From: an uncultured Bacteriovoracaceae bacterium
GTDB lineage: Bacteria; Bdellovibrionota; Bacteriovoracia; Bacteriovoracales; Bacteriovoracaceae
Assembly: GCA_964399165.1 (NCBI GenBank)
Contig: CAYNPO010000014.1
Span: forward strand, 12,147-76,146
Direction of reading: 5' to 3'
Length of the DNA: 64,000 bases
Under the pieces are notes generated by a model. That model made no database searches. It saw only the letters and a list, made by a program, of their open reading frames with translations, and was not told where the DNA came from. A program made the position numbers and the translations under genes. Positions within the stretch are counted from its first letter, which is position 1. The number at the start of each line of letters is the position of its first letter. This document shows positions 5,860 through 58,489 of this stretch, piece after piece.

Positions 5860-5863
5860 GCTT

Positions 5864-5869: not shown

Positions 5870-5941
5870 GCAAGAGCTAAGCCTGACTGCCAAGGGCGGC
5901 AGAAAACAACGCCATGAATAAAATTGAGTTATTCCGATAAC

Positions 5942-22234: not shown

Positions 22235-22239
22235 GCGTC

Positions 22240-22809
22240 ATGGCCTACCAAGCGCACCCCACCGCCATCATCGATGAGGGGGCCCAGGTGGGCGACGGGT
22301 GCCGGGTGTGGCATTGGGTCCACATTTCAGCCAAGGCCAAGATCGGCAAGAGCTGCTCCTTCGGACAGAACGTCTTTGTAGGCAACAACGTTACGATTGG
22401 CGACAACTGCAAAATCCAGAACAACGTCTCGATCTACGACAACGTTCACCTCGAGAGCGACGTTTTCTGTGGTCCCAGCATGGTCTTCACAAACGTCTAT
22501 AACCCGCGCTCCCAGTTCACGCGCAAGGACGAGTACCGCGACACACACGTGAAAAAGGGTGCCACCATCGGCGCCAATGCCACCGTCGTGTGCGGCGTGA
22601 CCTTGGGCGAGTATTGCTTCATCGCTGCTGGCGCGGTGGTGAACCGCGACGTTCGGCCCTACGCCCTCATGGGCGGCGTGCCCGCGCGGCAGCTGGGATG
22701 GATGAGCCGCTTCGGTGAACGCATCAAGTTCGGCGCCGACGGTTCCTACACCTGCCCCCACACCGGGGACGTCTATCGTTTGCGGGGCGACCATGTGGAG
22801 CTGGGCTGA
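22240..22809 (+). CDS. wbpD: Hexapeptide-repeat N-acetyltransferase, WbpD/WlbB-like
   Basis: ATG at 22240, 5 nt after the wbpB stop (the track start at 22201 overlaps wbpB). Left-handed beta-helix repeats [35 protein letters not shown]. Confidence 0.8.
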
Positions 22810-40271: not shown

Positions 40272-41771
40272 ATGCTGACCATGGCCGAAATTGCCGTCCT
40301 GGTGGTGGCTTTCTTTGCCACGCGCCTCCCCTTCGTACTCTCGGAGCGCGGCCACAATACTTCCTCCGACCGTCAAGTTTACTTGTGGTACCTGGGTCTC
40401 CTCTCCCGAGGGATGGCGCTGCGGGATCGGCGTTTCGCGAATGGCTTGATCGCCGACCGAGTGCCCATACCCATCATCCCGCACTGGTTGGTGGCGCGGT
40501 TCCCGGCCTCCTGGCACGCTCCTATCATGGTGAGCCTGAACTTGGTTTCAGACGCGGTGTTGCTGGGGCTATTTGGATGGGTCCTGGCTTCTCAGTCCCT
40601 GGTTCCTTTTGATGGCCAGCTGGTTTGGCCCCTGCTCCTTCTCGCCGCCAGTCCCCTGCTCCACCCGCCCGGCGCGCGCTTAAATTCGTTCGGAGGGCGG
40701 GTGTACGCCAACCTGCTTTTCTTCGCGTTTTTCTTGGCGCTTTTCCACACGCCCCATTCCCCCGCCGCGACCGCAGCCGCATTGGGGGCAGCGCTTTTGA
40801 CTTTGAACGCCTCTGTTTTTGGCAGCCAAGCGCTGTTCTTTTTCTCTCTGGCGCTTTCCGTGTGGCGCTTGGATCCCTGGCCCCTGGGGATTTTCTCCGC
40901 GGCGATGGCGGTTACTTGGTTCTCACCCTGGGGGGGAGGGGTACAGTGGCGGGGGCGCTTCGCCCATTACGCATGGTATTTGCGATTCATGACACGGAAA
41001 AGCCGTTTGTCCTGGCGCAGGCATTGGGAACACTTGCGCAGCGGCGACCCACTGAAAGTTATCAGCGGACTGCTCGTATCCAACCCGTGGACCGCGGTCG
41101 CCCTGATGTTCCCCCCGTTGTTCTTACTCTTCTCTTCTCCTGACCCATCCGCGCCCGCAGGCATGATTTATGCTTGGCAGATTGGGCGTGTGGGCCTGGG
41201 ACTTTTGGTTTTCTGCACCTTTTACCCCGGCGCGGTGTGGGGCGAGTCCGAGCGTTACGTGGAAATGACCGTGCCGTTCGTCTTGGCCGGGCTCTTTGCG
41301 CTGCCTGGCTTTATGGATCAAGGGACCATGGTGCTCTTGGCGGTATGGTCCTTCGCCCTCTGCTCCTTCAATTTGCTCGCATACGAGGGCAAAACCGTGG
41401 CGCACGCGGGACGCCATTCACATTATGAGGATTTGCAGGGCATCCGCAGCTTTTTGTCCGCTTCTTCTTACCGCAACATCCTCACCCAACCCTTGAAACT
41501 CGGTTACCTCTTCTCCAACCTCATGCCCGAAAAACATTTCTTCCTCTTCAACTACGACCTAAAAGAGGGCTTCGGATACTACTTCAAGTACATGGAAGGT
41601 GGGATGTACAACCTCAAGGATGACCCCGGCCTGTGGCGGGAGGCGGGCATGGAGGTGCTGGTGGGCAAGCCGGGCGACATCCAGAAACTCCCTCGCATGG
41701 CTGCGTCGTGTCGTAAGGTCTATGCCGACGCCGAGTATGAGGTTTGGGAATTGCCCCAGGAGGCCAGCTGA
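40272..41771 (+). CDS. Polytopic integral membrane protein (GT-C/polymerase-like architecture; function unknown)
   Basis: 499 aa with about 11 hydrophobic segments and a soluble C-terminal ~110 aa. TATAGC lies 6 nt upstream of the ATG and there is no SD. Confidence 0.6.
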   Translation: MLTMAEIAVLVVAFFATRLPFVLSERGHNTSSDRQVYLWYLGLLSRGMALRDRRFANGLIADRVPIPIIPHWLVARFPASWHAPIMVSLNLVSDAVLLGLFGWVLASQSLVPFDGQLVWPLLLLAASPLLHPPGARLNSFGGRVYANLLFFAFFLALFHTPHSPAATAAALGAALLTLNASVFGSQALFFFSLALSVWRLDPWPLGIFSAAMAVTWFSPWGGGVQWRGRFAHYAWYLRFMTRKSRLSWRRHWEHLRSGDPLKVISGLLVSNPWTAVALMFPPLFLLFSSPDPSAPAGMIYAWQIGRVGLGLLVFCTFYPGAVWGESERYVEMTVPFVLAGLFALPGFMDQGTMVLLAVWSFALCSFNLLAYEGKTVAHAGRHSHYEDLQGIRSFLSASSYRNILTQPLKLGYLFSNLMPEKHFFLFNYDLKEGFGYYFKYMEGGMYNLKDDPGLWREAGMEVLVGKPGDIQKLPRMAASCRKVYADAEYEVWELPQEAS

Positions 41772-41846
41772 GGCAGGGCGGTGGAGATATCGCGGTAATT
41801 ATGCGAAAAAGGACGGCAAGCCGGCGATAGGAATAAGGATGTGCAG

Positions 41847-42827
41847 ATGGGTCGTGTTCTCGTGTCAGGGGCGGATGGCTTCATAGGTTCCCACCTCACG
41901 GAGTACCTGGTTTCCCTTGGGTGGGAAGTCCGCGCCATGTGCCTCTACAATTCCTTCAACTCCTGGGGCTGGCTCGACCACAGCCCAGTGAAAAACCAGG
42001 TGGAGGTCATCACTGGGGACGTTCGGGACCCGCGCTTTTGCCGTGAAGCGGTTCGGGGAGTCGACACGGTCATGCACCTGGCGGCCCTGATCGCCATCCC
42101 ATATTCCTACCGCGCGCCAGACAGCTACGTGGACACCAACGTCAAGGGCACGCTGAACCTGGTGTCGGCGGCCATGGATGCGGGCGTGACAAAATTTCTC
42201 CACACCTCCACCAGCGAAGTTTACGGGAGCGCCCTGCAGGTCCCCATCTCCGAAACCCATCCGTTCCAACCGCAATCCCCCTACAGCGCCAGCAAGATCG
42301 CCTCCGATATGATGGCGCTGAGCTTCCACCACGCCTTCCAGTTCCCGGTGACGGTGGTGCGCCCCTTCAACACCTATGGACCGCGCCAGTCCGCACGCGC
42401 GGTGATCCCCACCATCATTTCCCAGCTCGCAGCTGGCAAGCGAGAGATCCGGCTGGGCGACCTACGCCCCACTCGCGACTTCAACTACGTCGAGGACACC
42501 TGCCGCGGCTTCGCTGACATCGCCCGTGCCCAAAACGTGGGGGGGGAAACCTTCAACGTGGGCTCGGGGGGAGAAATTTCCATCGGAGATCTGTTCCACC
42601 GCATTCAAAGCATCATGGGCACCAACGCCGAGTTAGTCCGCGACGAGGAGCGTTTGCGGCCAGAAGCTTCTGAGGTCATGCGCCTGGTGTGTGACCGCTC
42701 ACGTTTACAACGGTTGACCGGCTCCGTTCCCCAGGTCTCCCTGGACGAAGGGCTCAAGCGCACCGTCGCGTGGTTCACTGAGCCCGCTAACCTGCGGCTG
42801 TACAAGACGGACATCTACAATGTTTGA
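41847..42827 (+). CDS. legB: NAD-dependent 4,6-dehydratase LegB (legionaminic acid pathway)
   Basis: ATG at 41847 with AAGGA 7 nt upstream (the track start at 41841 is GTG). VSGADGFIGSHL, CLYNSFNSWGWLD, ALIAIPYSY, STSEVYG, QPQSPYSASKIASD, RPFNTYGPRQSARAVIPTII and the YKTDIYNV end closely recall Campylobacter LegB. Confidence 0.85.
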   Translation: MGRVLVSGADGFIGSHLTEYLVSLGWEVRAMCLYNSFNSWGWLDHSPVKNQVEVITGDVRDPRFCREAVRGVDTVMHLAALIAIPYSYRAPDSYVDTNVKGTLNLVSAAMDAGVTKFLHTSTSEVYGSALQVPISETHPFQPQSPYSASKIASDMMALSFHHAFQFPVTVVRPFNTYGPRQSARAVIPTIISQLAAGKREIRLGDLRPTRDFNYVEDTCRGFADIARAQNVGGETFNVGSGGEISIGDLFHRIQSIMGTNAELVRDEERLRPEASEVMRLVCDRSRLQRLTGSVPQVSLDEGLKRTVAWFTEPANLRLYKTDIYNV

Positions 42828-43962
42828 GGACCTCCTCGGCTTTGTGCGCTCTCTCTACCCTGGAATGCCTGAGGTTCCCCTCCACGCGCCCGTGTTGGGA
42901 GAGGACGAGCGTCGCGGAGTTTTAGAGGCTCTGGATTCCGGCTTCGTGTCCTCAGTGGGACCTCATGTGACGCGTTTTGAGGATGAACTGGCGCGGCTCA
43001 CTGGCGCCACCCGCGCGGTGGCGGTGGTCAATGGGACCGCCGCTCTCCACCTGGGGCTGGTTGTCTTGGGCGTGAAGCCAGGTGAACTCGTCCTTACCCA
43101 GGCACTAACCTTCGTGGCCACCGCCAATGCCATCAGCTACGCCGGGGCGACCCCGGTTTTCCTCGACTCGGACGCGGACAGCTTGGGCCTTTCCCCGCTG
43201 GCCCTTACCCGCTACTTAGAGTCCCATGCAGTGAAACGCGGCGGGGCCGCTTACCAGAAGGACGGTGGGCGGCGTTTCGCGGCATGCGTTCCTATGCACG
43301 TATTCGGTCATCCCGTGCGCATGTCGGAACTCCTGGCTGTATGCCAGGAGTGGGGAATTCCCGTGCTGGAGGATGCCGCCGAGGCCCTGGGGAGCCAGTG
43401 TGACGGGTACAAAGCAGGGGCCATGGCGCCGGTTGGAGCCTTGAGTTTCAATGGGAACAAGATTGTCACCACTGGGGGCGGCGGCGCGCTGCTCTTTCGC
43501 GACGAGGCCCTTGCCGCCCGTGCCAAGCACCTCTCCACTACCGCCAAACGACCGCACCCGTGGGCGTTCCATCACGACGAACTCGGCTACAACTACCGCA
43601 TGCCCAACCTAAACGCGGCTTTGGGGCTCGCCCAGCTTGAGCGACTCCCAGTTTTCCTGGAGGCCAAAAGCCGAATCTCTTCCGCTTACCAAGATTTCTT
43701 GGGGAACCGGGAAGACATACAGTTCGTGGGGGCGCGCCCCGGCACCCAACCCAACTGGTGGCTCAACGCCATGTTGGTGCGCGACCGCGCCACACGTGAT
43801 CGCTGTCTCGAAGAGGGCCAGGCCGCGAGGGTCCAGTTGCGACCCGTCTGGGATTTGATGTGCGATCTCCCAATGTACGCGGCTTGTCCCCGCGACGGCC
43901 TTGTCAACGCACGGGAGCTAGCAGGGCGTTTGGTAAACCTGCCCAGCGGGGTACCCGCATGA
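42820..43962 (+). CDS. legC: LegC-family aminotransferase (DegT family)
   Basis: 8-nt overlap with legB. FVSSVGPHVTRFEDELA, SFNGNKIVTTGGGG (PLP Lys) and AFHHDELGYNYRMPN. Confidence 0.85.
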   Translation: MFEDLLGFVRSLYPGMPEVPLHAPVLGEDERRGVLEALDSGFVSSVGPHVTRFEDELARLTGATRAVAVVNGTAALHLGLVVLGVKPGELVLTQALTFVATANAISYAGATPVFLDSDADSLGLSPLALTRYLESHAVKRGGAAYQKDGGRRFAACVPMHVFGHPVRMSELLAVCQEWGIPVLEDAAEALGSQCDGYKAGAMAPVGALSFNGNKIVTTGGGGALLFRDEALAARAKHLSTTAKRPHPWAFHHDELGYNYRMPNLNAALGLAQLERLPVFLEAKSRISSAYQDFLGNREDIQFVGARPGTQPNWWLNAMLVRDRATRDRCLEEGQAARVQLRPVWDLMCDLPMYAACPRDGLVNARELAGRLVNLPSGVPA

Positions 43963-44843
43963 AGATCGGCTACTTCGCGGACGGCCCGTGGTCCCACTCC
44001 GCCTTAGAGAGAATCCGTCGCCGGGGCGTGGCCCAAGTGGCGTTCATTTGCGTGCGCGCCAACTCCACCGACGAGGTACTGCCACGTTTGGCAGCTGAGA
44101 TGGGGGTGCCATGCTTCAAGCATCCCGACGTGAATAGCCAGGAGTTCCTGGCCACGATTGGCCCCTTCGCCTGTGACATTCACGTGTCCATGTCCTTCGA
44201 TCAAATTTTCCGACGCCCAATGTTGGAGGACGCGCCTGGCGGCGTGATCAACTGCCACGCTGGGAAGTTGCCCTTCTACCGCGGCCGCAACATCCTCAAT
44301 TGGGCCCTGATCAATGGGGAGAAGGAATTCGGCATCACCGTCCACCACGTGGACGCTGGCATCGACACGGGGGATATCATTCTTCAGCGCGTGTACCCCA
44401 TCGCGGAGGACGACACCTACGCCACGCTACTCGAGCGTTCGTTCACCGGCTGCGCCGAGGCGCTGGATGAGGCCCTGGCCTTGTTGGCCAAGGGCGAGGC
44501 TCCCCGGATCCGCCAAAACTCCATCCATCCCGTTGGCTCCTATTGCGGGCGCCGCGGGGAGGGGGACGAAAGGATCGACTGGCGCCAAACCTCCCAGGAC
44601 CTACACAACTTCATCCGCGCCGTTTGCCATCCTGGTCCACGAGCGCGCACCACCTACGAAGGCCTTCCGGTCAGCATCAACCGCGCCCGACTGGTCCCCG
44701 AGGCCCCCAAGTACAAGGGTATCCCTGGCCAGATCATCGGCAAGGTCCCAGACGGCTGGCTGGTCAAGACTGAGGACTCCTTTTTGGAAATCTATGAAGT
44801 GGAAACCGCCGGCAAACTACGCGTGGGCGGGAGGTTTGCATGA
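43959..44843 (+). CDS. Sugar N-formyltransferase-like protein (Fmt family, complete Asn/His/Asp set)
   Basis: ATG at 43959 forms an ATGA overlap with the legC stop (the track start at 43860 is an over-extension). VINCHAGKLPFYRGRN and HHVDAGIDTGDII. Confidence 0.8.
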   Translation: MKIGYFADGPWSHSALERIRRRGVAQVAFICVRANSTDEVLPRLAAEMGVPCFKHPDVNSQEFLATIGPFACDIHVSMSFDQIFRRPMLEDAPGGVINCHAGKLPFYRGRNILNWALINGEKEFGITVHHVDAGIDTGDIILQRVYPIAEDDTYATLLERSFTGCAEALDEALALLAKGEAPRIRQNSIHPVGSYCGRRGEGDERIDWRQTSQDLHNFIRAVCHPGPRARTTYEGLPVSINRARLVPEAPKYKGIPGQIIGKVPDGWLVKTEDSFLEIYEVETAGKLRVGGRFA

Positions 44844-45844
44844 GCCAACGCGTTTTCATCATCGCTGAGGCTGGTGTCAACCACAACGGCGACATGGGAC
44901 TCGCGCGCGAGCTGGTGCATGCTGCAGCCGACTCCGGCGCGGACGCCGTCAAGTTCCAGACTTTCACCGCGGAACGGCTCGCCGCCCGCCATGCCCCCAA
45001 GGCCGCCTACCAGCTGAGCACCACGCAGGCCGGTGAAAGCCAGTACGCCATGCTGAGGAAGCTCGAGCTGCCTTATCCCGCTCACCGGGAGCTCATGGAG
45101 CTGGCGCACTCACGCGGCATTGAGTTCATGTCCACACCCTTCGACGTGAAGGCCGCTAAGTTCTTGGCGGGTTTGGGCGTGAAACGCCTGAAGATCCCTT
45201 CCGGTGAGATCACCAACTTCCCTTACTTGCGTGATGTCGCCCGCTTGGGGCTCCCCACTATTTTCTCCACCGGAATGGCCACACTGGAGGAAATCGGCGA
45301 CTGCCTCGCCGTTTTGAGGCGCTTTGGGCTTCGTCGCGACCAGTTGACCGTACTCCATTGCAACACCGAGTATCCCACCCCACTGGAGGATGTGAACTTG
45401 CGCGCCATGGGCGAGATCCGCGAGCGGTTTGGAGTTGAAGTAGGCTATTCCGATCACACCGCCGGGACCGATGTGGCTTTGGCTGCCGTCGCCCTTGGCG
45501 CTCGTCTTGTCGAAAAGCATTTCACCGTTTCCCGTCGGTTGCCCGGCCCTGACCAGACAGCTTCGTTGGAGCCCCACGAACTGCGCCAAATGGTGGAAGG
45601 CATTCGACGGGTGGAGCTGGCGCTGGGGCTTCCCCTCAAGGGGCCGACCCGCTCGGAATCCAAGAACATCGTGATTGCCCGCAAGAGTTTGGTCGCCTCA
45701 CGCGCCATCCGCAAGGGTGAGGCGTTCACCGAGGAGAACGTGACCGCCAAGCGCCCTGGCGGCGGGATTACACCCATGCGCTGGGAAGAGTATATGGGTC
45801 GGATTGCATCCCGGGACTATCTCCCGGATGAAGCGCTGGATTAA
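44840..45844 (+). CDS. legI: N,N'-diacetyllegionaminate synthase (NeuB family)
   Basis: ATGA overlap with the upstream gene. FIIAEAGVNHNGD, AVKFQTF, GYSDHT and a C-terminal SAF-like domain. Confidence 0.85.
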   Translation: MSQRVFIIAEAGVNHNGDMGLARELVHAAADSGADAVKFQTFTAERLAARHAPKAAYQLSTTQAGESQYAMLRKLELPYPAHRELMELAHSRGIEFMSTPFDVKAAKFLAGLGVKRLKIPSGEITNFPYLRDVARLGLPTIFSTGMATLEEIGDCLAVLRRFGLRRDQLTVLHCNTEYPTPLEDVNLRAMGEIRERFGVEVGYSDHTAGTDVALAAVALGARLVEKHFTVSRRLPGPDQTASLEPHELRQMVEGIRRVELALGLPLKGPTRSESKNIVIARKSLVASRAIRKGEAFTEENVTAKRPGGGITPMRWEEYMGRIASRDYLPDEALD

Positions 45845-45846
45845 CG

Positions 45847-46995
45847 GTGAGCAAGCGCAAGGTCATGGTTCTGACGGGAACGCGGGCCGACTACGGTCTC
45901 CTCCGCCACACCCTGCGCGAAATCCTGCAGCATCCGGCCCTTGAGTTGTGCCTGGTGGTGACCGGCACACATCTCTCCGCCGCTCATGGCGAAACCGAGT
46001 GGGAGATCGCGGCCGATCAGATCCCCATCGCTCACCGCCTGCCGATCTTGGATGGGGAGGGTGATGTGTCGCGCGCCAGCGCCCGCGCTTTGGAAGGTGT
46101 GGCGGAACTCCTACGCGCGGAAAACCCCGATGTGCTGCTGGTACTGGGAGACCGTTACGAAACTTTCGCCGCCGGCGCCGCGGCCACGTTGCTCAACGTG
46201 CCGCTGGCCCACGTGCACGGCGGGGAGCTGACCTTGGGAGCGGTAGACGATGCTCTCCGCCACTCCTTGACCAAGATGGCCTGGTGGCATTTCACCGCCG
46301 CCGAGGAATACCGGCAGCGGGTCATCCGTATGGGGGAGGACCCCCAGCGCGTCTTCAACTTAGGGGCCCCTGCGGTGGACGCTTTGAATGGGACTCCCGT
46401 GCCCAAGGAAGAATTGGAGCGGGCCGTGGGGTTGGAGCTACGCCCCCCCGTGGTGCTGGCTACTTTCCATCCGGAAACGAAATCCCCAGGCCAAGCCGCC
46501 GCCCAAGTGGGAATCCTGTGGCAAGGCCTGGTGGCGGCAGCCCCAGGAACCGTGGTCTTCACCCGCGCCAACGCGGACGCGGAAGGGAACGTGGTCAACT
46601 CCACGTTGGAAAAACTCATTGCGGGTGGGGAAATCCCCCATGCCCGGCTGGTGGATTCCCTGGGCCACCGCAACTACTTCTCCCTTTTGCGCCTGGCTGA
46701 CGTGGGCTTCGGCAACTCCTCCAGCTTGGTCATCGAGGCCCCGATTTTGTGCACTCCCAGCGTGAACGTGGGCCAGCGGCAGGAAGGCCGGGTGCGGGCG
46801 CCTTCCGTGACGGACGTGGGTTTTGACCCCCCCGCCATTCGGGACGCCTTGCGAGCGGCATGGGCCCCGGGCAGACGGGCGCTCCTGTCGGGCATGCCCC
46901 ATCCATTCGGAATCCCGGGTGTCGCCAAGCGCATCGTGGACGTTTTGGCGGGGGCCGAACTGCCTCGGAATTTGATAAAGAGATTTCATGAATAA
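45847..46995 (+). CDS. legG: Hydrolysing nucleotide-sugar 2-epimerase (NeuC/LegG family)
   Basis: GTG start 2 nt after the legI stop. VLTGTRADYG, VLGDRYE and HVHGGE motifs. Confidence 0.85.
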   Translation: MSKRKVMVLTGTRADYGLLRHTLREILQHPALELCLVVTGTHLSAAHGETEWEIAADQIPIAHRLPILDGEGDVSRASARALEGVAELLRAENPDVLLVLGDRYETFAAGAAATLLNVPLAHVHGGELTLGAVDDALRHSLTKMAWWHFTAAEEYRQRVIRMGEDPQRVFNLGAPAVDALNGTPVPKEELERAVGLELRPPVVLATFHPETKSPGQAAAQVGILWQGLVAAAPGTVVFTRANADAEGNVVNSTLEKLIAGGEIPHARLVDSLGHRNYFSLLRLADVGFGNSSSLVIEAPILCTPSVNVGQRQEGRVRAPSVTDVGFDPPAIRDALRAAWAPGRRALLSGMPHPFGIPGVAKRIVDVLAGAELPRNLIKRFHE

Positions 46996-48046
46996 TTGGG
47001 AAAAGCTGATCGTCCAGCCGGGGATGAGCATCTTGCAGGCGATGAAGGCCATCGACCAGGCGGCTACCCGCTTTGTCATCGTTATGGACGATTCGGGCAA
47101 GCTTTTGGGCGTGGTCACCGACGGGGACGTGCGCCGGGGCATCCTCAAGAACATTCCCCTGACCGAGCCGGTGGAGCGGATCATGAACGCCCACCCTTAT
47201 TGCCTTCCCGACGGGGTCTCCCGGGCCGAGGCCAGGCGTCTGTTGGATGAAAAACAGATCACTCACGTGCCAACAGTGGATAGCCGGGGCAAAGTGACGG
47301 GAGTCATTAGTAACGTGGACCGCCCGGAAACCACGGTGTGCCCGTACACCGCGGTGTTGATGGTGGGGGGGCTAGGCACTCGCTTGGGCGAGTTGACCTC
47401 CGAATGCCCCAAACCCATGCTGCCCGTGAGCGGGCGGCCGGTACTTGAAACTATTGTGAGAAATCTGCGCGAGCATGGTTTCCGAGATTTCGTGTTCTGC
47501 GTGAATTACCGCGCGGACGTCATCAAGTCACACTTCGGCGATGGGGAGGCCCTCGGTGTGCGCATTCGCTATGTCCATGAGACCAAACGGATGGGAACCG
47601 CGGGCGCCTTGGGTCTTTTGCCTGAGGATGTACAGGGCCCCCTCTTGGTCATGAACGGTGACATTGTGACCAACGTGAATTTCACGCGCTTGCTGGATTT
47701 CCACCAGGAGCATCGCTCTTGCGCCACCATGGGTGTCCGCAACTATGATTTCCAGGTTCCCTTCGGAGTTATCAAAACCTCTGAGGGACGCATCACCGGA
47801 ATAGAGGAGAAACCTGTCTACAATTTCATGGTGAGCGCGGGGATTTATGTGCTGGAGAAGAAATGGCTCTCCTCCGTGGAGCCGGGGGCTTTCTTTGATA
47901 TGCCCCAACTGTTCGAGAAAATCGGTGAGGGCGGCGGGGCCACCCACGTCTTTCCGATCCATGAGTACTGGCTAGATATTGGCTCGGAAGGGGACCTCAA
48001 GCGCGCCCACGAGGAATTCCCCCAATGGGACAGATGGAAGGAATGA
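46988..48046 (+). CDS. ptmE: CBS-domain sugar-phosphate nucleotidyltransferase (PtmE-like)
   Basis: 8-nt overlap with legG. Two CBS repeats (VIVMDDSGKLLGVVTDGDVRR; HVPTVDSRGKVTGVIS), then VLMVGGLGTRL...KPMLPV. Confidence 0.8.
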   Translation: MNNWEKLIVQPGMSILQAMKAIDQAATRFVIVMDDSGKLLGVVTDGDVRRGILKNIPLTEPVERIMNAHPYCLPDGVSRAEARRLLDEKQITHVPTVDSRGKVTGVISNVDRPETTVCPYTAVLMVGGLGTRLGELTSECPKPMLPVSGRPVLETIVRNLREHGFRDFVFCVNYRADVIKSHFGDGEALGVRIRYVHETKRMGTAGALGLLPEDVQGPLLVMNGDIVTNVNFTRLLDFHQEHRSCATMGVRNYDFQVPFGVIKTSEGRITGIEEKPVYNFMVSAGIYVLEKKWLSSVEPGAFFDMPQLFEKIGEGGGATHVFPIHEYWLDIGSEGDLKRAHEEFPQWDRWKE

Positions 48047-48122
48047 AGAAAACTGACGCCCGTCATGGAGACGCCCGGCGATTGGGATAGATTGGGCGAG
48101 AATCAAAACCTGGGAGCAACAT

Positions 48123-48866
48123 ATGGACAAAAACCAAGTGCAAGAGTTTCAGGAAAAAGGCTACACCAAGGTCGCGGGTTTCTTTACCCCGCAGGAAGTG
48201 GCTGAAATCAACCGCCACGTGCAGGAGTACGTCGACGGACGGGCCCGCGAACTTTCCGGACGCGACATAAACTTCTCCAGTGGCGTTCCCAACTCCATCC
48301 ACAAACTATGGAACCCAGGCGAGAAGAACTTCTTCAACACTTTCGCAGCCTCCGAGAAATTAATGGAGCTGGTCCGCCCTTTCCTGAATGACGACCCAGA
48401 GTTGCGCGCTTCCGAGCTCTTCCTCAAACCCGCTAAGGTGGGTTTGCCCAGCCCCCACCACCAGGACAACTTCTATTGGTGTCTGGATGACGCTAACGGC
48501 TTGACGGTGTGGGTGGCGCTGGTGCCGTGCGGTCCTGAAAACGGCGGCATTTTCTACTACGAAGGCTCGCACAAGATGGGCATCCTCGCGCACAAGGATT
48601 CCTTCGCCCCCGGATCTTCCCAGACAGTTAAAGACCTGGGGGAGATCGGGCATTTGAAGAAAGTGGTGCCCTCCCTGGTACCCGGGGACGTGTTGCTCCA
48701 CCACTCCCTAACGGTTCATGGCAGCGACGCCAACACCAGTGACTTTCCCCGCAAGGGTTGGACCATCCAGTACAAGGCGAAGAGTTCGGTCTACAACAAG
48801 GACATGCTCAACCACTATAACAACCGGTTGGCCGAGCAGGTGAAGGCGCGCGAGGAACGGCGCTAG
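48123..48866 (+). CDS. Phytanoyl-CoA dioxygenase (PhyH)-family Fe(II)/2-oxoglutarate oxygenase
   Basis: SD GGGAG upstream. HHQDNFYW (HxD) and LTVHGSDAN (distal His). Confidence 0.75.
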   Translation: MDKNQVQEFQEKGYTKVAGFFTPQEVAEINRHVQEYVDGRARELSGRDINFSSGVPNSIHKLWNPGEKNFFNTFAASEKLMELVRPFLNDDPELRASELFLKPAKVGLPSPHHQDNFYWCLDDANGLTVWVALVPCGPENGGIFYYEGSHKMGILAHKDSFAPGSSQTVKDLGEIGHLKKVVPSLVPGDVLLHHSLTVHGSDANTSDFPRKGWTIQYKAKSSVYNKDMLNHYNNRLAEQVKAREERR

Positions 48867-49651
48867 GCCCCTTGGGGGCGGCGCGCCCTCACCACGTAGG
48901 ACATGGGGAACGCCTTGTCAGGCTTCTGCAGGTTCTTGGGGTAGCGCCGCTCCAGCTCCATGAGCCGGGGAAATTCTTCTTGGAAGAACCAGCGGGAGCG
49001 CTGCTCGCGCTCTCCTTCGGGAAAATTCTCGAGCGCCATCTGCCATGCGTAGGCAATCACGTCGAACACCCCGCTTCCAAGTTCCGCCCCTTCCCACTGC
49101 AATCCCCGTCGCGTGAGTTCTTCCTGAAATCCGTAGGGGGTGTAGCGTAGGTAGTCGTCGGGTACATGGTGGAGTTCGCGGACCAGGCCTTCGAATACCA
49201 TCAATTCGCCGCCGGGAGCGAGCAGCCTTGCCCATTGGTCGAACATGCCCTTTTGATCGCGGATGTGGTGGACGATGTTGGGCGGGAAAACCAGGTCGAA
49301 AGACGCGTCGGGGAGGAAATCCAGCCGACCAGGGTCGGCGGCATGGTGGGCGCGCATGCGGATGAAGTCGGGGTGGTCCACCACGCTGGACTGGTGTCCG
49401 GTTCGTTGCGCCAAGGAATCGTTCACGCAGTCCACCACCGTGCAGTGGTGGTCCGCGAACAGCGGGCCGTACAGGGAGTGCCCGCCGAAGAAGTAAGCGC
49501 GCTCCAGTACCAGTACGCGTTTGCCGGAAGGGTTGGTGGCCAGCCACCGTTCAAGCGCCTGGAACAGCACGCGGAACTGGGGCCACTTTCCTTCGGTGTG
49601 GTAGACGCTTTTTTTCAGGAAATCCAGGTGGCGTGCCACATCCGCGTTCAT
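48863..49651 (-). CDS. Methyltransferase-like protein (class I fold, degenerate motif I)
   Basis: ATG at 49651 forms an ATGA overlap with the upstream stop. VLVLERAYFFGG and FDLVFPPNIVHHI...LAPGGELMVFE. Confidence 0.5.
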   Translation of the reverse strand: MNADVARHLDFLKKSVYHTEGKWPQFRVLFQALERWLATNPSGKRVLVLERAYFFGGHSLYGPLFADHHCTVVDCVNDSLAQRTGHQSSVVDHPDFIRMRAHHAADPGRLDFLPDASFDLVFPPNIVHHIRDQKGMFDQWARLLAPGGELMVFEGLVRELHHVPDDYLRYTPYGFQEELTRRGLQWEGAELGSGVFDVIAYAWQMALENFPEGEREQRSRWFFQEEFPRLMELERRYPKNLQKPDKAFPMSYVVRARRPQGA

Positions 49652-50355
49652 CGCTTCCCCTCTTGCCACAGCAATTCCGCCAGCCGGAAATCCAGCTGGT
49701 CATCAATGTTCACGCCCCGTTCCGGGGGCATCATATAGGGAACGCAGTCGGCGCCGTAAAACGTGCGGTGGCGCCGGAGGGTTTCCACCGTCGCCACGAA
49801 AACTGCGCCGCTAGTAATGAGCGCCTGGGGCAAGTCCTGGCGGTTGCCTTCGTGCGTGCCAGGTAGCAGCGGTTCCAGCCGCCCGTCCGCGCCCACCTTT
49901 TTCATCTTGTAGGGATTTCTTCCTCCTACGTCGACCATGCTGACTACCGAGCCGTGGGGGCCCAGGAGGCCCAGGCAGGCGTCGATATCGGCCGAAGTGC
50001 GCAAGGGCGAGGTGGGTTGTAGCCAGCAGAGTGCGTGGGGGAGAGGTTCGCTCTGCGCCTCCAACCATCCCAAAAAATGCAGGGCCACTTCCACAGCGGT
50101 GGAGCGGTCGCCGGCTAGGGCGGCGGGACGGACGTAAGGGATGCGGACGCGCGGAAAACGCTCCCGCACGTCTGCGATGAGTTCTTCGTCGTCTGTGTCC
50201 AGGAAAACCGCCCCGAGGCGTGATCCAAGGGCCTGGCGGCAGGCGTGACCTACGAGGGTGTCGTCGCCAAGACGGCGTTTGTTTTTCCCCGGTAGGCCTT
50301 TCGAGCCCTGGCGGGCAGGGATGATCCCATAGATATTGGGCAGTGCTTCAGCCAT
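49648..50355 (-). CDS. Acylneuraminate-type cytidylyltransferase (CMP-nonulosonate synthetase, NeuA/LegF/PseF family)
   Basis: Start chosen at the ATG giving MAEALPNIYGIIPARQGSKGLPGKN (50355). GGAGG upstream. WLQPTSPLR motif. Confidence 0.8.
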   Translation of the reverse strand: MAEALPNIYGIIPARQGSKGLPGKNKRRLGDDTLVGHACRQALGSRLGAVFLDTDDEELIADVRERFPRVRIPYVRPAALAGDRSTAVEVALHFLGWLEAQSEPLPHALCWLQPTSPLRTSADIDACLGLLGPHGSVVSMVDVGGRNPYKMKKVGADGRLEPLLPGTHEGNRQDLPQALITSGAVFVATVETLRRHRTFYGADCVPYMMPPERGVNIDDQLDFRLAELLWQEGKR

Positions 50356-50384
50356 GCTGGGATGCGCCTCCGAAAGCTCAATGC

Positions 50385-50390
50385 TATATT
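50385..50390 (+). promoter_or_regulatory. -10-like hexamer TATATT, 6 nt upstream of the ATG at 50397
   Basis: gcTATATTgcgggcATG with no SD. Confidence 0.3.
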
Positions 50391-50396
50391 GCGGGC

Positions 50397-51254
50397 ATGT
50401 TACTGGGAAGACAATGGCCGACGCTCCTACTCGATGGGACAAAGCGGCTTCCATGGAAGGAGTGGCAGCAGCGCCGTTTCGGGCATCGGTACGGTTTTCT
50501 CTATCTTGTTTGGTCCCGGGTCCATTATGCCATGGCCCGTGCTCTCTATATCCTGGTCCGCCGTCGTTGGCGCAAAGACGGAATGCAAGCCCTGGTGCGG
50601 GAGACTTTTCGCATCACCCGCTGCGATGTAGGGGGTCTGAGAGCCGCCTTCCTACAGGAATGGGGGGAAGCTCGCGGCGAGGGGAGGGGCAAGTTGTCCT
50701 TGGATGCGCTGGCCCGCCTGGCGCCCCAGATCGCCGCGTGCTTGGAACAGGTGGCTCCCGAGATCGAGAAAATCTATGGCACGTTTTTCCGCGTGAACCT
50801 GGTATCCGCCTCACGCACACGTCCCGCCGCCATGGAGCCAGGAAGTTCTTTCGACTTCCACTACGACAACGTTCCTTGGTGCAGCCTCAAGGTGTTCTTC
50901 TACTTGAACGACCAGCAAGCGGACACAGGCGCCTTTAGGGCGCTGGATGCCGACACGACTGCCAGTCTCATCCAGCGTGGGTTCGACAGCTCCTCCGTCG
51001 AGCGGCGGACGCGTTCCCAAGCGCTGGTCACGCCCGACATTCGCTCACGCCTGCGCGTGGCCGAAGGTACCGAAGGAACGGTCTTGATATGGCATAACCG
51101 CTTGGTGCACAAGGCGACCTTGCCGGAACGCGGTCACCGCGATTTGGTGCAGTTGGAAATCATGCCGGCGTTGTGGCCCTCAGACTTCCGCCGCCTGCTA
51201 CGCCGTCCGCGCCAGGAGAACACCACTTGGGAACTTATCGGGCGCGGGCTTTGA
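50397..51254 (+). CDS. Hypothetical protein with cupin/2OG-Fe(II)-oxygenase-like HxD...H signature
   Basis: ATG at 50397, preceded by TATATT with a 6-nt spacer and no SD. FDFHYDN ... IWHNRLVHKA. Confidence 0.45.
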   Translation: MLLGRQWPTLLLDGTKRLPWKEWQQRRFGHRYGFLYLVWSRVHYAMARALYILVRRRWRKDGMQALVRETFRITRCDVGGLRAAFLQEWGEARGEGRGKLSLDALARLAPQIAACLEQVAPEIEKIYGTFFRVNLVSASRTRPAAMEPGSSFDFHYDNVPWCSLKVFFYLNDQQADTGAFRALDADTTASLIQRGFDSSSVERRTRSQALVTPDIRSRLRVAEGTEGTVLIWHNRLVHKATLPERGHRDLVQLEIMPALWPSDFRRLLRRPRQENTTWELIGRGL

Positions 51255-51256: not shown

Positions 51257-52792
51257 ATGGGTCCCCGGGTTTTCTACGTGGGCTGCGTGGGGGAGTTTTG
51301 GGCGGATGCCGCAAAATGGCTCGAACAGGAGCGTGGCTGGCAAGCCGTCTTCTGGAGCGGGGTGGGGCGCGGTCACACCGACTCGCGTCTTCCCAACGAG
51401 GACCATGTGCGTCGGCTTTTCCCAGAAGTCATTTTCCACGACGCCCTAGCCATGGAGCACTTGGCGGGATTGGCCCGGCGCTATCCCGATGGGGCGGACC
51501 TGCATGCAGTGGGCAGCGGGCTTTACGAGGCTTTTTTCATGCATGCCCGACAGGAGAGTGCTGGGGACACCCACACCTTGCATGACCGTTGGATGGCCTA
51601 TGTGAACCACTACGCCAAATGGGATGCTTTGGTGGAAGAGCTGCGGCCCGACCTGGTCTTCCATCCCGAGATTCCGCATTTCACTTCCGACTTGGCCCTC
51701 ATGCACGTGGCGCGCCGACGTGGAGTTCGCACGATCTATGGCTACTTCACCAAGTTCCGCAAAGGGCGCGTGTGGACGGCGGACCCCTACCGCAAATCCC
51801 TCTATCCCCGGCGGGTGATGGAGGACGCGCCCCTCGATCCACGGGTGACTGAGTACGTGGGGAAGCTGCGGGCGCGCCAGTACGAGGTTCCACTCGTGGA
51901 GCGCCAGTTCACTACCCGCGCGGCCAATAGCGGAGTGATCAATTGGAGTTACGGCTGCGCCCGCGCCATGTTGGGCCAGTTGCTGAGGGGGAAGGCTTTC
52001 CGCCGCGTGTACGACCACACGCTGGCACGTGACTCACACATTACCCGTGCCGCCCTCCCACCCACCTGGTTGCGCCACCGCTGGAACCTCTACAGGGGGG
52101 GGCTGTTGAACATCGCCAACTACGCCGCTTACCGGAGGCTGGAGGGACGCGCGGATTTCACGCGCCCATACGTGTACTTCGCCCCGAGTTACCAACCTGA
52201 GCGCACCACGTCCCCGGACGCCGGGCTGTACGTGGACACCGGTTACCTTCTGCGGCTGGTGCGTGAATTGGTGCCTAAGGAGTGGGAGATCCTTTACAAG
52301 GAACACCCGCGCAACTTCGATCCGCGCTCACGGGGCTACCTGCTACGGGACCAGCTGTTTTACCGCGAGATATCTTCCATACCGGGAGTCCGCCTTCTCA
52401 GTCTCGACCACGATTCTTTCGAGCTCATAGATCACGCCAAGTTTTGCGTCACGGCCACGGGGTCGGTGGGATTGGAGGCAGCCTTGCGCGGGAAACAGGC
52501 CATCATTTGGGGATCTCCCTGGTATGAGGGGGTGGATGGCGCCTTCAGAGTGGAAACCCGGGCGGAGTTCACCGCCGCTTTGGCCAAGATCACCGCTGGC
52601 TACGCCAATGATCTGGAGTACAACAAACGCTACCTCAACACGTTGTTGCGTTTGGAGGGTGAGTTCCCCCACTTGTTCCGGGAGCGGGAGGTGCGCGAGC
52701 TGAAGCGGCAGGATCCCGCCGCATATGGCGCCCAGGTGGAGGCCATGGGACGCTCGCTGATTGATTTCTTGGCGTCCGAGGATGTCCATTGA
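51257..52792 (+). CDS. Capsule-biosynthesis-type GT-B protein (KpsS/KpsC/LpsZ-like; candidate nonulosonate or Kdo-like transferase)
   Basis: ATG at 51257, 2 nt after the upstream stop. YVYFAPSYQPERTTSPDAG...WEILYKEHPRN...VTATGSVGLEAALRGK pattern. Contains a G8 tract at 52095-52102. Confidence 0.5.
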   Translation: MGPRVFYVGCVGEFWADAAKWLEQERGWQAVFWSGVGRGHTDSRLPNEDHVRRLFPEVIFHDALAMEHLAGLARRYPDGADLHAVGSGLYEAFFMHARQESAGDTHTLHDRWMAYVNHYAKWDALVEELRPDLVFHPEIPHFTSDLALMHVARRRGVRTIYGYFTKFRKGRVWTADPYRKSLYPRRVMEDAPLDPRVTEYVGKLRARQYEVPLVERQFTTRAANSGVINWSYGCARAMLGQLLRGKAFRRVYDHTLARDSHITRAALPPTWLRHRWNLYRGGLLNIANYAAYRRLEGRADFTRPYVYFAPSYQPERTTSPDAGLYVDTGYLLRLVRELVPKEWEILYKEHPRNFDPRSRGYLLRDQLFYREISSIPGVRLLSLDHDSFELIDHAKFCVTATGSVGLEAALRGKQAIIWGSPWYEGVDGAFRVETRAEFTAALAKITAGYANDLEYNKRYLNTLLRLEGEFPHLFREREVRELKRQDPAAYGAQVEAMGRSLIDFLASEDVH

Positions 52793-54159
52793 GCCCTTCT
52801 GCCGACGAACTCGCCCGCTGGATTCGCGAGGGCGAAGCCGATCCCGCCTTGCGCAGGTTGCGCGTGGGGCGGGTGGACGCATGGCCTTTGCTGCGACTGA
52901 GTTGGGCCAGTGCGCTCGGTTTGTTACTGGTGCCCGCGCCACGTTCTGGCGCGGGCACGGCACTTCCTCGCTGGCGCGGGCTCCGTCACCTACCTATGCT
53001 GTGGTGGGAGTTGCTTCGCACACGCGGAGGCGTACTGGCTTTCCACAGTGCCAATAGCCGTTTTCTGGAAAATGCCGGCGAGCTGGTGGCTCCGCACCTC
53101 TTCCCAGTCTTGAAAGAGCTTTCGGCTCGTCATCCGGTGCTGGTGATGGAGTATGGGGCCCAGGGGAAATCCCCGGTGCGTTCTTTTAGCGCCTTCTCCC
53201 ACGGGGAAGCCCTCATCTGGATGGCTTCTTTCTTGGTGCGGCGTTTGCGTCTTTCCCCTCCCGGCCTGGGCGAGCTGCGCGTGGCGCTGGAGCGCATGGG
53301 GGTGCCGGCCCCTCAGGCGAGTCAGGCATTGGAAAATGTGGCTGCCGCTCATGTGCTGGCAGGGTGGTGGGAGCGCCTGCTGCGATTCCATCGCACTGGC
53401 GGTGTGTGGATGCTTTGTTATTACACCCGCCCGGGCATGGCCTTATGCGCGGCCGCTCGCAGCGTGGGCATACCTTGCATCGACGTGCAGCACGGCGCTC
53501 AAAGCAGCCGCCATTACGCTTACTGCGGTTTCGAGGGGCACGCTATCCAGCCTTATAACACCCTTCCCACCGCGTTCTGGACCTGGGGAGCGCGTGAAGC
53601 CGAGTGGCTCAAATCCTGGGTGGGCGAGGGCACATCGGTCCAGGTGGTGGGGTACCCCACGGCGAAACTCCCTTTGGCCCCTGTGCCGGCGGAGCTTCCC
53701 AGGGAGAGATGTGCCCTTTTCACCGTGGATCAGCGCACGGAACCAGCTCAGGTTGACGCCATTCTCGCCGCCAACCCCCGCTGGACGTGGCTTATCCGCC
53801 TGCATCCCTCCATGCGTACTGAAGCCGCCGAATGGCAGCGCCGTCTAGGGCCAGGCGTATGGGTAGAGTGGCCTACGAAAGCGGCCCTTCCCACTGTGCT
53901 TCGGAACGTAGATTGCCATGTGACCCATTACTCGGGGGTGGTGGCTGAAGCGGCGTTGTTGGGTGTGTTCTCGATCATGACCCATCCCCGCTCACTGGAG
54001 TTTTATCCAGAATTAGTGCGGGATGGGTTGGCAATTTTCAATGAAAACCCGCATTTGGATGAGCTGATGGCCCAGCGCAAGGAGGAGTCCCTGCTAGACC
54101 CACCGGACTACCTTGCTTTGTGGGAGCGGACTCGCATGGAGGATGAATTTGGTCTTTGA
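52789..54159 (+). CDS. Second capsule-type GT-B-like protein (weak)
   Basis: IDVQHGAQS ... WLIRLHPSM ... VTHYSGVVAEAALLG. The TTG start overlaps the upstream stop; the true start is uncertain. Confidence 0.4.
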   Translation: MSPSADELARWIREGEADPALRRLRVGRVDAWPLLRLSWASALGLLLVPAPRSGAGTALPRWRGLRHLPMLWWELLRTRGGVLAFHSANSRFLENAGELVAPHLFPVLKELSARHPVLVMEYGAQGKSPVRSFSAFSHGEALIWMASFLVRRLRLSPPGLGELRVALERMGVPAPQASQALENVAAAHVLAGWWERLLRFHRTGGVWMLCYYTRPGMALCAAARSVGIPCIDVQHGAQSSRHYAYCGFEGHAIQPYNTLPTAFWTWGAREAEWLKSWVGEGTSVQVVGYPTAKLPLAPVPAELPRERCALFTVDQRTEPAQVDAILAANPRWTWLIRLHPSMRTEAAEWQRRLGPGVWVEWPTKAALPTVLRNVDCHVTHYSGVVAEAALLGVFSIMTHPRSLEFYPELVRDGLAIFNENPHLDELMAQRKEESLLDPPDYLALWERTRMEDEFGL

Positions 54160-55268
54160 CTCACATGGAAAATTGGCCAAAGATGGCAGCCATGGCCATT
54201 GAGACCTACAGCTCCCGGCAACAGAATTTCTTGTCCGCCAAAATCCAGGGACAGCAAACCGCCCAGACCTTCTCGGCTCGTGCACCTTTCCCCACCAAGG
54301 CATTGGTGGAACTTTCCAATTGGTGCAACCACGCCTGCGTGTTTTGCACCAACCCGCGCATGGTACGGGGTAAGGGGTTCCTGGATATCGGCCTGTACCG
54401 GCGGTTCGTCCAGGATTCGGTTAGCCTGGGATTGAAGGAACTGGGCCTCTACACCACGGGTGAGCCCTTCTTTGTGAAGAACCTGGTAGACTTTGTGAGT
54501 GTCGCCAAGGACGCGGGCGTGGATTATGTTTACATCACCACCAACGGCGCCATGGCCACCATGGACAAGGTGGAGCCCCTGTTGCGCGCGGGCCTGGATA
54601 GTCTCAAGTTTTCCGTCAACGCCGGCACCCGCGAAACGTACCGATTGGTGCATGGAAAGGACGACTTCGACACCGTGGTGGCGAACATCCGTGCCATCGC
54701 CGCCCGCCAACGAGAAGCCTATCCAAGCCTGCGGCTCTCCGCCTCCTGCGTGGTCACCAAATACGTTGAAAACGAGCGTCAGGCTTTGATCGACGCCATC
54801 GGCGATCTGGTGGAGGAGATTGTCTTTGTGGGCGTGGGCGGGCAGGGGGGCCAATCCCTGGACCAACTTGCCCTCCTTGAGTCCACTCTCTCCGACCGTC
54901 CCCCGCGCCTCGGGGAAGCTAAACCTTGCGCCATGCTTTGGAACCGCTTGCACCTCACGAGGGAGGGGTATCTCACCCTATGCTGCATCGATTATGAGAA
55001 CGTGCTCAGCTACGCCGACTTAAGCCAGGTGTCGGTGGCGGAAGCCTGGAACAACCAAGTCATCATGGAGATGCGCCAGCGACAGATTGATCAGAAGCTT
55101 GAAGACACTCTTTGCCACAATTGCTTGTACAACGAGAAAAAGCCGTTCCGCCCCATTAGCCCCATCGGGCGTGAGGAAGGCGTGGGCTACGAATCCGTCC
55201 ACGAGAAAGGCAGTGCTGGGGTTGCCGACCGCATCGCCCAGCTGGAAAAGAACCACGCCCGCTCTTAG
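54156..55268 (+). CDS. Radical SAM enzyme with Cys-rich C-terminal (SPASM/twitch-like) extension
   Basis: CNHACVFC (CxxxCxxC) at 54324-54347. TTGEPF, ITTNG. C-terminal CAMLWN...LTLCCIDYEN...LCHNCLY. The start is TTG at 54156 or ATG at 54165. Confidence 0.85.
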   Translation: MTHMENWPKMAAMAIETYSSRQQNFLSAKIQGQQTAQTFSARAPFPTKALVELSNWCNHACVFCTNPRMVRGKGFLDIGLYRRFVQDSVSLGLKELGLYTTGEPFFVKNLVDFVSVAKDAGVDYVYITTNGAMATMDKVEPLLRAGLDSLKFSVNAGTRETYRLVHGKDDFDTVVANIRAIAARQREAYPSLRLSASCVVTKYVENERQALIDAIGDLVEEIVFVGVGGQGGQSLDQLALLESTLSDRPPRLGEAKPCAMLWNRLHLTREGYLTLCCIDYENVLSYADLSQVSVAEAWNNQVIMEMRQRQIDQKLEDTLCHNCLYNEKKPFRPISPIGREEGVGYESVHEKGSAGVADRIAQLEKNHARS

Positions 55269-56311
55269 CCCGTTCCCGCCAGCCATTCCGCCACTTCCGG
55301 CGCGCGGCTCCCCACTGCAAGGCCGAGGCAAGCCTGGCCATAAGACACACGGCGTGCGCGATCTGCTACCAGGCGGGCGACCGCCTCCCTCATCGCTCCC
55401 GGGGGGAGCGCCTGGACCTCGCCCAAGTACTCCTGGTATCCATGGGTCGCCAGGCTGCGGGAGAGTTCTACTTGGTTCTCTGCCACCGCCACCACCGTGC
55501 CGGACACGCCGAAGTACGCGCGTTCCCAGGTGATGGAACCGCCCGCACCGAGGTACAAATCGGTCTCCGCCAGCAGCCCCGCCACGTCACGGCTTCCCAC
55601 CACCACGTTGAGACCGGCTTCGGTCCCAGCCGCGCGCCATTCTTCCCGCAGGGGGTGCCCACCGCCCACCAACAAAGTGGCTTCCACCCCCGGGACGGGG
55701 CGCTCCCGCCATTCCCTTAGGAACATGCCAGAAGCGCGGTGGGAATCCGTGCCCCCAAAGAAAACTAAAAGGCGGCGCGCGCCCTCCCGTGGGACGGGGG
55801 GCCGGGCGTGGGAGAAAAATGAGGGGTGCAGCAGGGCGAAGGCGGGACCCAGGAAGAGCTTTGTCGCCATGGGGACCCGACCGGCCCAACGGGCGGCATG
55901 GCCCGCGTGGAAATTCTGGTCCAGGAGTGCGTCGCAGTCATGTTCTCGGAAGAGATCGTCCACGACCAGTACCCGATGCCCGGCAGACCTCATCGTCGTC
56001 TCCCAAGTCTTTCCCAGCGCATAATGGTCGAGGATGACCCCGTCGGGACGCTCTTTTACGAGGGTCGCCAAGACATCCGCCGCGTCCTGAGTTTCGGTGA
56101 AGGAAGCGTCATAGCGCGTCACTTTGAACTGTAATTCCTCAATCACGTTGATTATATTGTGGTCCAGTTCCCGGCACGCGAAAGTCGACAGGTGTCCCCG
56201 GTGGCGCAACCATTGGGCGAGGGCGAGGCATCGCATGACGTGTCCAGTCCCAATGACCGACGATGAATCGCAACGGAACAGGAATTTTTTCGGAGCCCCC
56301 ATGTTGGCCAT
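55265..56311 (-). CDS. pseG: UDP-2,4-diacetamido-2,4,6-trideoxy-beta-L-altropyranose hydrolase PseG
   Basis: The track start at 56545 is an over-extension; ATG at 56311 (or 56302). FLFRCDSSSVIGTGHVMRCLALA is the PseG N-terminal signature. Confidence 0.8.
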   Translation of the reverse strand: MANMGAPKKFLFRCDSSSVIGTGHVMRCLALAQWLRHRGHLSTFACRELDHNIINVIEELQFKVTRYDASFTETQDAADVLATLVKERPDGVILDHYALGKTWETTMRSAGHRVLVVDDLFREHDCDALLDQNFHAGHAARWAGRVPMATKLFLGPAFALLHPSFFSHARPPVPREGARRLLVFFGGTDSHRASGMFLREWRERPVPGVEATLLVGGGHPLREEWRAAGTEAGLNVVVGSRDVAGLLAETDLYLGAGGSITWERAYFGVSGTVVAVAENQVELSRSLATHGYQEYLGEVQALPPGAMREAVARLVADRARRVSYGQACLGLAVGSRAPEVAEWLAGTG

Positions 56312-56332
56312 GTTAACCCAGAAGGAACGTCC

Positions 56333-58485: not shown

Positions 58486-58489
58486 CTGG

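Follow-up and report, generated by a model that had tools for sequence, protein, structure and literature searches.

Nonulosonic acids cap flagellins, capsules, lipopolysaccharides and surface-layer glycans, and their N-acyl groups set charge, antigenicity and recognition by phages or lectins. Formyltransferases in nonulosonate gene clusters are already known or proposed, the cases being PseJ and enzymes of Halorubrum and Candidatus (Ca.) Kuenenia. In Pse5Ac7Fo, a 5-N-acetyl-7-N-formyl pseudaminic acid (Pse), the formyl group comes from PseJ (PMC11040635). In Ca. Kuenenia stuttgartiensis, a cluster resembling those for legionaminic acid (Leg) contains a formyltransferase gene and goes together with formylated CMP-nonulosonates (bioRxiv 10.64898/2026.04.20.719630). 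Here we analysed a 64,000-nucleotide stretch of DNA (the window; positions 12147-76146 of contig C14) from the 3.2-Mb, 99.4% complete genome of an uncultured Bacteriovoracaceae bacterium, in which the place of the acetyltransferase LegH within a Leg gene module is taken by a formyltransferase that we call P0001. A first-pass annotation of the window had presented this arrangement as a local oddity; the oddity is real, but the use of a formyltransferase for LegH turned out to be a widespread and conserved variant of the cluster. What is added here is a rule about the LegH slot and the breadth of a formyltransferase family that is mis-annotated across phyla.

The Leg module and its formyltransferase

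The module begins on the forward strand with legB (41847-42827), whose ATG start at 41847 is preceded by AAGGA. LegB, an NAD-dependent NDP-GlcNAc 4,6-dehydratase, passed the cut-off of TIGR04180 (482.8 bits against 475) and was 55-67% identical to LegB of about 100 related clusters. On the same strand follow legC (42820-43962; TIGR04181, 489.5 bits against 420), which encodes a pyridoxal-phosphate aminotransferase yielding a 4-amino-4,6-dideoxy-GlcNAc nucleotide; the gene for P0001, a 294-residue Fmt/ArnA-type N-formyltransferase by family (43959-44843); legI (44840-45844; TIGR03569, 475 bits against 399.65), for a NeuB-family nonulosonate synthase with NeuB and SAF domains; legG (45847-46995; TIGR03568, 351.9 bits against 235.9), for a NeuC-family hydrolysing 2-epimerase; and a ptmE-like gene (46988-48046) for a sugar-1-phosphate nucleotidyltransferase with CBS and NTP_transferase domains. 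Convergent to them, on the reverse strand, lies a legF-like gene for a CMP-nonulosonate synthetase (49648-50355; PF02348, CTP_transf_3). The tight coupling claimed in the first-pass annotation is borne out by overlaps of 8 nucleotides between legB and legC, 4 between legC and the P0001 gene (ATGA), 4 between the latter and legI, and 8 between legG and ptmE, and the coordinates also place the legG start 2 nucleotides past the legI stop. A promoter and terminator scan of 41500-50700 returned no more sites than shuffled sequence did.

That annotation had also assigned the module to the GDP-linked type, which agrees with the passing of both the LegB and LegC equivalog cut-offs and with the presence of the ptmE-like gene; the carrier would then be GDP. 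The PtmE-like and LegF-like proteins have domain architectures that fit the Campylobacter jejuni pathway, with scores that do not reach equivalog cut-offs. The best NCBIfam match of the PtmE-like protein was a mannose-1-phosphate guanylyltransferase, at a score under that model's cut-off; it is probably a guanylyltransferase, and its gene is kept beside the Leg genes in most related loci. The LegF-like protein scored 97.7 bits on the PseF model TIGR03584, under the cut-off of 205.7, and was 28-40% identical to the products of genes in the LegF position of related clusters. As previously observed, there is no hexapeptide or PglD-like gene within 41847-50355.

P0001 contains PF00551 and PF02911 and, as first described, has the catalytic set of the Fmt family intact, with Asn98 and His100 in the motif INCHAG and Asp136 in DAGIDTGD. 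These three residues, which we take to correspond to N102, H104 and D140 of ArnA, were invariant in 37 locus-derived and 45 database homologues. An AlphaFold2 model built on the 45 homologues had a mean predicted local distance difference test score of 94.4 and superposed over both subdomains with the ArnA formyltransferase domain (2bln; template modelling (TM) score 0.86) and with Fmt (TM 0.87-0.90). By sequence, P0001 was nearest in the PDB to the formyltransferase domain of ArnA (E 1e-33), to Fmt and to the hydrolase domain of FDH, with weaker matches to WbkC (E 7e-20) and PseJ (E 1e-10). Fold and catalytic set together place P0001 in the Fmt/ArnA/PurN superfamily, with a predicted activity dependent on N10-formyl-tetrahydrofolate. 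P0001 fell under the curated cut-offs of fmt (TIGR00460, 127.5 against 201.5 bits), ArnA (134 against 777) and PRK06988. We rejected the identification of P0001 as the housekeeping fmt, the genuine gene for which is found at C19:58586-59485 (247.9 bits).

We propose that legB-legC-fmt-legI-legG-ptmE and the convergent legF would make a CMP-activated legionaminic acid in which the 7-N-acyl group is formyl, not acetyl. PtmE and the housekeeping GlmU would provide GDP-GlcNAc, which LegB would dehydrate and LegC would aminate at C4. P0001 would then move a formyl group from N10-formyl-tetrahydrofolate to the 4-amino group of the LegC product by means of Asn98, His100 and Asp136, a step that in canonical clusters would fall to LegH with acetyl-CoA. 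LegG would strip GDP and epimerise C2, LegI would condense the sugar with phosphoenolpyruvate to 5-N-acetyl-7-N-formyl legionaminic acid (Leg5Ac7Fo), and LegF would activate this with CMP. We regard such a 4-N-formylation of the LegC product by P0001, with N10-formyl-tetrahydrofolate as donor and Leg5Ac7Fo as the outcome, as reasonably likely. Because a formyltransferase stands in the LegH position, the cell probably makes an N-formyl legionaminic acid.

The LegH slot in related clusters

Orthologues of P0001, at 45-66% identity, were found in many phyla, for example Bacteroidota, Bacillota, Planctomycetota (Ca. Jettenia), Verrucomicrobiota, Cyanobacteriota, Campylobacterota, Myxococcota and Bdellovibrionota, and also in a number of proteobacterial classes, with Vibrio, Colwellia and Psychromonas among the hosts. 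The orthologue of the anammox bacterium Ca. Jettenia (locus L012) was 53% identical to P0001. Almost all named entries among the best 120 database homologues were labelled methionyl-tRNA formyltransferase. The closest relative, 66% identical, is encoded on a Logan contig (L049; SRR13608734, 147-6811) that represents the same island rearranged: a WbpE/WbpB/WbpD-like trio lies directly upstream of legB-legC-fmt-neuB, an ABC exporter follows, and legG and ptmE are not adjacent.

Two sets of loci were compared, 39 with genes for relatives of P0001 and 80 with genes for relatives of LegB from the window, the latter picked regardless of whether a formyltransferase was present. Almost all P0001 orthologues sit among homologues of LegB, LegC, LegG, LegI, PtmE and LegF. 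The LegB-anchored loci have two gene orders, LegB-LegC-X-LegI-LegG-PtmE-LegF and LegB-LegC-LegG-LegI-X-PtmE-LegF. In 41 loci, slot X encodes a protein of about 215 residues that is LegH by family and position, because it scores over the TIGR03570 cut-off in that slot (217.7 against 160.8 bits). In the formyltransferase-anchored loci a P0001 orthologue stands at X in both gene orders, which confirms the earlier statement that the formyltransferase occupies the LegH slot.

A census of full clusters counted about 44 with LegH only, 16 with the P0001-type formyltransferase only, one with both and two with neither; these counts were corrected by six-frame hidden Markov model (HMM) matches, antisense open reading frames (ORFs) having masked LegH in the uncorrected table. 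On that uncorrected table, and ignoring the kinship of the loci, a Fisher test for mutual exclusivity gave p = 1.5e-7. In a LegC tree of 80 clusters (49 with LegH, 19 with the formyltransferase, two with both and ten with none, the last mostly broken off at a contig end), about ten changes were needed to account for the formyltransferase state, at least three of them forced by well-supported branches. Since LegC of one clade precedes either LegH or the formyltransferase, it appears that the same LegC product goes to either enzyme, and the pattern in the tree looks like non-orthologous displacement of a single step. One of the two clusters with neither enzyme, L129, has a FemAB/Acetyltransf_6-like protein in the slot after LegC (2939-4012; also seen at L099:9041-10093), which suggests a third kind of N7 group, acyl or aminoacyl.

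LegH is also absent from the rest of this genome. The first-pass annotation had named a LegH homologue elsewhere as a possible source of the activity, and we found none, no protein matching TIGR03570 over 160.8 bits. When we searched with an HMM built from the 41 genes that hold the LegH slot in related clusters, on which true slot genes score 160-295 bits, the best match in the whole genome reached 75 bits. No small GNAT turned up when the unassigned ORFs flanking the module were scanned with Pfam. Among ten other genomes whose clusters contain only the formyltransferase, seven had no TIGR03570 member genome-wide.

The position of the formyl group

Several observations weigh against the view that P0001 stands in for LegH at N7. 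About eight of some 32 formyltransferase-anchored loci hold a bona fide LegH, with PglD_N and LbH domains, beside the formyltransferase (L012 from Ca. Jettenia, L014, L015, L018, L021, L024 and L040 from Campylobacter sp.); several are from Lachnospiraceae or Clostridium, and most are without close LegB and LegC orthologues. In a Selenomonadaceae metagenome-assembled genome (MAG), a single 488-residue ORF (L030:3332-4798) combines Formyl_trans_N, Formyl_trans_C and PglD_N, which suggests that LegH and the formyltransferase can cooperate and need not substitute for each other. This ORF is followed by a second LbH gene and is either a natural fusion or an assembly frameshift. When the formyltransferase tree was labelled by the presence of LegH, clusters with and without it were interleaved, giving no support for sub-functionalisation; because the two kinds interleave among close relatives, the enzyme is probably the same in both contexts. 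Searches of the literature did not find Leg5Ac7Fo, and those for Leg5Fo7Ac and 7-formamido compounds returned noise or work on Pse. Moreover, the function of the whole P0001 family is a prediction.

These points bear most directly on an alternative in which P0001 formylates the 2-amine of GDP-GlcN in place of a GlmU-type acetylation, which in this organism would give Leg5Fo7N with a free N7. GDP-GlcN is reportedly the product of PtmE in the C. jejuni pathway, as Schoenhofen and colleagues are said to have found in 2009. Two acyltransferases that work together would act on two different amines, as expected for the clusters, one of them with a fused ORF, that have both LegH and a P0001-type enzyme. 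Halorubrum sp. PV6, whose formyltransferase gene is co-transcribed with an adjacent NeuD homologue, makes 5-N-formyl-Leg (PMC6137143), and a CMP-nonulosonate of Ca. Kuenenia has one formyl group and one free amine (SugarBase preprint, bioRxiv 10.64898/2026.04.20.719630). Formylation at N5 leaves unexplained, however, both the position of the enzyme in the LegH slot of two gene orders and its near-exclusivity with LegH in LegB/LegC clusters. No NDP-GlcN 2-N-formyltransferase was found among the solved sugar formyltransferases that P0001 matched; ArnA and WbkC, which are among the nearest of these, use a 4-amine as acceptor, and the remaining ones, such as WlaRD and QdtF, a 3-amine.

A second formyltransferase clade bears on the same question. 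This clade, Fmt', is only distantly related to P0001 (25-29% identity) and, within Leg clusters, never occurs without a PIG-L/LmbE deacetylase next to it. The pair occurs alongside a P0001-type enzyme in four loci that have no LegH (L011:11037-12583, L031:5379-6934, L038:5382-6937 and L124:7888-9425) and alongside LegH in Halomonas tibetensis (L126:13297-14879), where there is no P0001-type enzyme. Two further loci, L027 and L028, have a P0001-type enzyme and a deacetylase, and neither LegH nor Fmt'. The simplest reading of these combinations is that the deacetylase and Fmt' would edit the GlcNAc-derived N5, with the slot enzyme, LegH or P0001-type, acylating N7; the pair would then look like a predictor of Leg5Fo7Fo beside a P0001-type enzyme and of Leg5Fo7Ac beside LegH, and the combination in L027 and L028 would give one formyl group and one free amine, the pattern described for Ca. 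Kuenenia (bioRxiv 10.64898/2026.04.20.719630). If P0001 acted at N5, L011, L031, L038 and L124 would contain two routes to N5 and none to N7, and the deacetylase-coupled Fmt' of L126 stands next to LegH itself. We therefore judge formylation of GDP-GlcN by P0001 to be unlikely. The Fmt' genes come after legG in L011, L031, L038, L124 and L126, as does the formyltransferase gene of Halorubrum sp. PV6 (PMC6137143); this shared position is only a hint that the Halorubrum enzyme is of the Fmt' type.

Taking formylation at N7 by P0001 as the preferred reading, we can extend it to a broader proposal, about which we are evenly divided: that the P0001 clade, usually annotated as methionyl-tRNA formyltransferase, repeatedly displaces LegH to give Leg5Ac7Fo; that with Fmt' and the deacetylase it amounts to a combinatorial code of acyl groups at N5 and N7 (Ac/Ac, Ac/Fo, Fo/Ac, Fo/Fo and NH2/Fo); and that an organism lacking both LegH and PseH may bear only N-formylated nonulosonates.

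Another alternative leaves the LegH step to an unrelated N-acetyltransferase, so that the sugar would be Leg5Ac7Ac and P0001 would modify some other sugar of the 58-kb glycan locus, for example a Pse intermediate. The window does encode several further amino-sugar pathways and aminotransferases. These include a Pse set whose products all passed NCBIfam cut-offs, comprising pseG (55265-56545, reverse strand), pseI (56333-57376), pseB (57460-58485) and pseC (58349-59635). No PseH was found in the genome, and the formyltransferase-fold protein next to the Pse genes, a 213-residue protein with Formyl_trans_N only that is convergent to pseC (59642-60283, reverse strand) and resembles PDB 1zgh and, weakly, PseJ, has a Val in place of the catalytic Asn. 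The candidates for the acetyltransferase are GlmU, a FemAB/GNAT-like protein at 29518-30558 and a WbpD-like LbH protein at 22201-22809, the last of which the first-pass annotation had already raised. It is the sole LbH protein of the window; it scored 85 bits on TIGR03570 against the cut-off of 160.8, over the LbH half only, and 64.7 bits on the LegH HMM. Its gene lies in a trio of its own, with a WbpE-like aminotransferase and a Gfo-Idh-MocA (WbpB-like) oxidoreductase, and on the grounds of score, missing PglD_N and this context we rejected it as LegH, although promiscuity is possible. The P0001 gene, for its part, is translationally coupled to legC and legI, and in various phyla its orthologues lie within Leg clusters, irrespective of the genes around these. 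An acetylated product with P0001 serving another pathway thus seems distinctly improbable.

Finally, P0001 might formylate any free amine, giving Leg5Fo7Fo here or mixtures of products, which would reconcile clusters that have only the formyltransferase with those that have both enzymes, but in the clusters that look set up for double formylation there is another, separate formyltransferase together with a deacetylase, a pair that a dual-site enzyme would make unnecessary, and the sugar N-formyltransferases studied structurally are, to our knowledge, regiospecific, so that we give this very little credence.

Neighbouring genes, host lineage and comparison with known systems

Two genes stand between ptmE and legF (48123-49651). 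The first encodes a PhyH-family Fe(II)/2-oxoglutarate dioxygenase (48123-48866, forward strand; PF05721, 109.7 bits) and the second a class I S-adenosylmethionine-dependent methyltransferase (48863-49651, reverse strand; Methyltransf_11/12/25 domains), whose gene overlaps legF by 4 nucleotides. From their position, they may be tailoring enzymes that hydroxylate or methylate the nonulosonate. CMP-nonulosonates of Ca. Kuenenia bear a +14 Da modification (bioRxiv 10.64898/2026.04.20.719630). LegF is the only cytidylyltransferase of the nonulosonate type, and no separate PseF was seen. Further along, a 511-residue protein with a weak Capsule_synth (KpsS/KpsC-like) match (51257-52792) may be a CMP-nonulosonate glycosyltransferase, with unassigned ORFs and a radical SAM/SPASM enzyme (54156-55268) as its flanking neighbours. 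A third formyltransferase-fold paralogue, of 332 residues with both N and C domains, is encoded on the reverse strand at 32229-33227 and reads ISLHGS, with Ser for the catalytic Asn; its gene is coupled to an unassigned ORF of 356 residues (33224-34294) and divergent from a DegT aminotransferase gene (34377-35450).

Among the comparison loci, L130 (the same as L021, from Clostridium sp.) encodes an acetolactate-synthase-like thiamine-diphosphate enzyme (5539-7326) beside PglD-like, Fmt, NeuB and NeuC proteins, with three radical SAM/SPASM genes downstream. ORFs of similar size, about 600 residues and unannotated, lie beside the formyltransferase gene in L017, L019 and L020.

As for the host, a 282-residue RpoB segment (C24:10025-14164) was 81% identical to that of a MAG labelled Halobacteriovorax sp. 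SP2999, and none of the other matches listed exceeded 68% identity. On these values the host belongs to a deep-branching, poorly sampled lineage. The G+C content of the genome, about 60%, is atypical for the genus label Halobacteriovorax.

If N7 formylation by P0001-type enzymes is correct, it would provide a sequence rule for LegB/LegC clusters, by which LegH in the slot indicates 7-N-acetyl and a P0001 orthologue 7-N-formyl, and N-acyl variants would become predictable from genomes. The common mis-annotation as methionyl-tRNA formyltransferase would be corrected, and enzymes of the P0001 type would be possible tools for the chemoenzymatic synthesis of formylated legionaminic acids.

Compared with the GDP-type Leg pathway of C. 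jejuni, the module described here has LegB, LegC, LegG and LegI, and lacks LegH. LegH, PglD and NeuD (TIGR03570) share with P0001 the slot, the upstream LegC and, by inference, the acceptor, but they have an unrelated fold, PglD_N plus a left-handed beta-helix, use acetyl-CoA as donor and are absent from this genome. The best match in both sequence and structure is the formyltransferase domain of ArnA (2bln, 1z7e; about 30% identity, TM 0.86-0.89), which has the same two-subdomain architecture and Asn/His/Asp set and, as predicted for P0001, formylates a sugar nucleotide on its 4-amine; ArnA differs in acting on UDP-Ara4N and in being fused to a decarboxylase, whereas P0001 is free-standing in a Leg operon. 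WbkC, the GDP-perosamine N-formyltransferase of Brucella (5vyr; TM about 0.7), modifies a GDP-linked 6-deoxy amino sugar at the 4-amine, again as predicted for P0001. It is 26-27% identical, has another C-terminal region and takes a manno acceptor without a 2-acetamido group.

Judged by analogy of predicted function, PseJ (PDB 6ci2/6ci4; PMC11040635) is the direct counterpart of P0001: it has the formyltransferase fold, belongs to a nonulosonate cluster and places at N7 a formyl group that replaces the acetyl group of PseH. It differs in serving the Pse pathway with UDP-L-altro intermediates and in its chains of 192-217 residues without Formyl_trans_C. P0001, with two domains, a place in a Leg operon and a match to PseJ over the N domain only, falls in a different clade and is not a PseJ-type member. 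Closest in setting are Ca. Kuenenia and Halorubrum (HrrPV6_1050), in each of which a putative formyltransferase lies in a leg cluster and formylated nonulosonates have been detected; the former differs from the present locus in its deacetylase and free amine, the latter in its NeuD homologue and in having the formyl group on N5. Because PseJ, Halorubrum and Kuenenia are precedents, the value of the present locus lies in the generalised pattern and the testable enzyme that it adds to them, and not in conceptual surprise.

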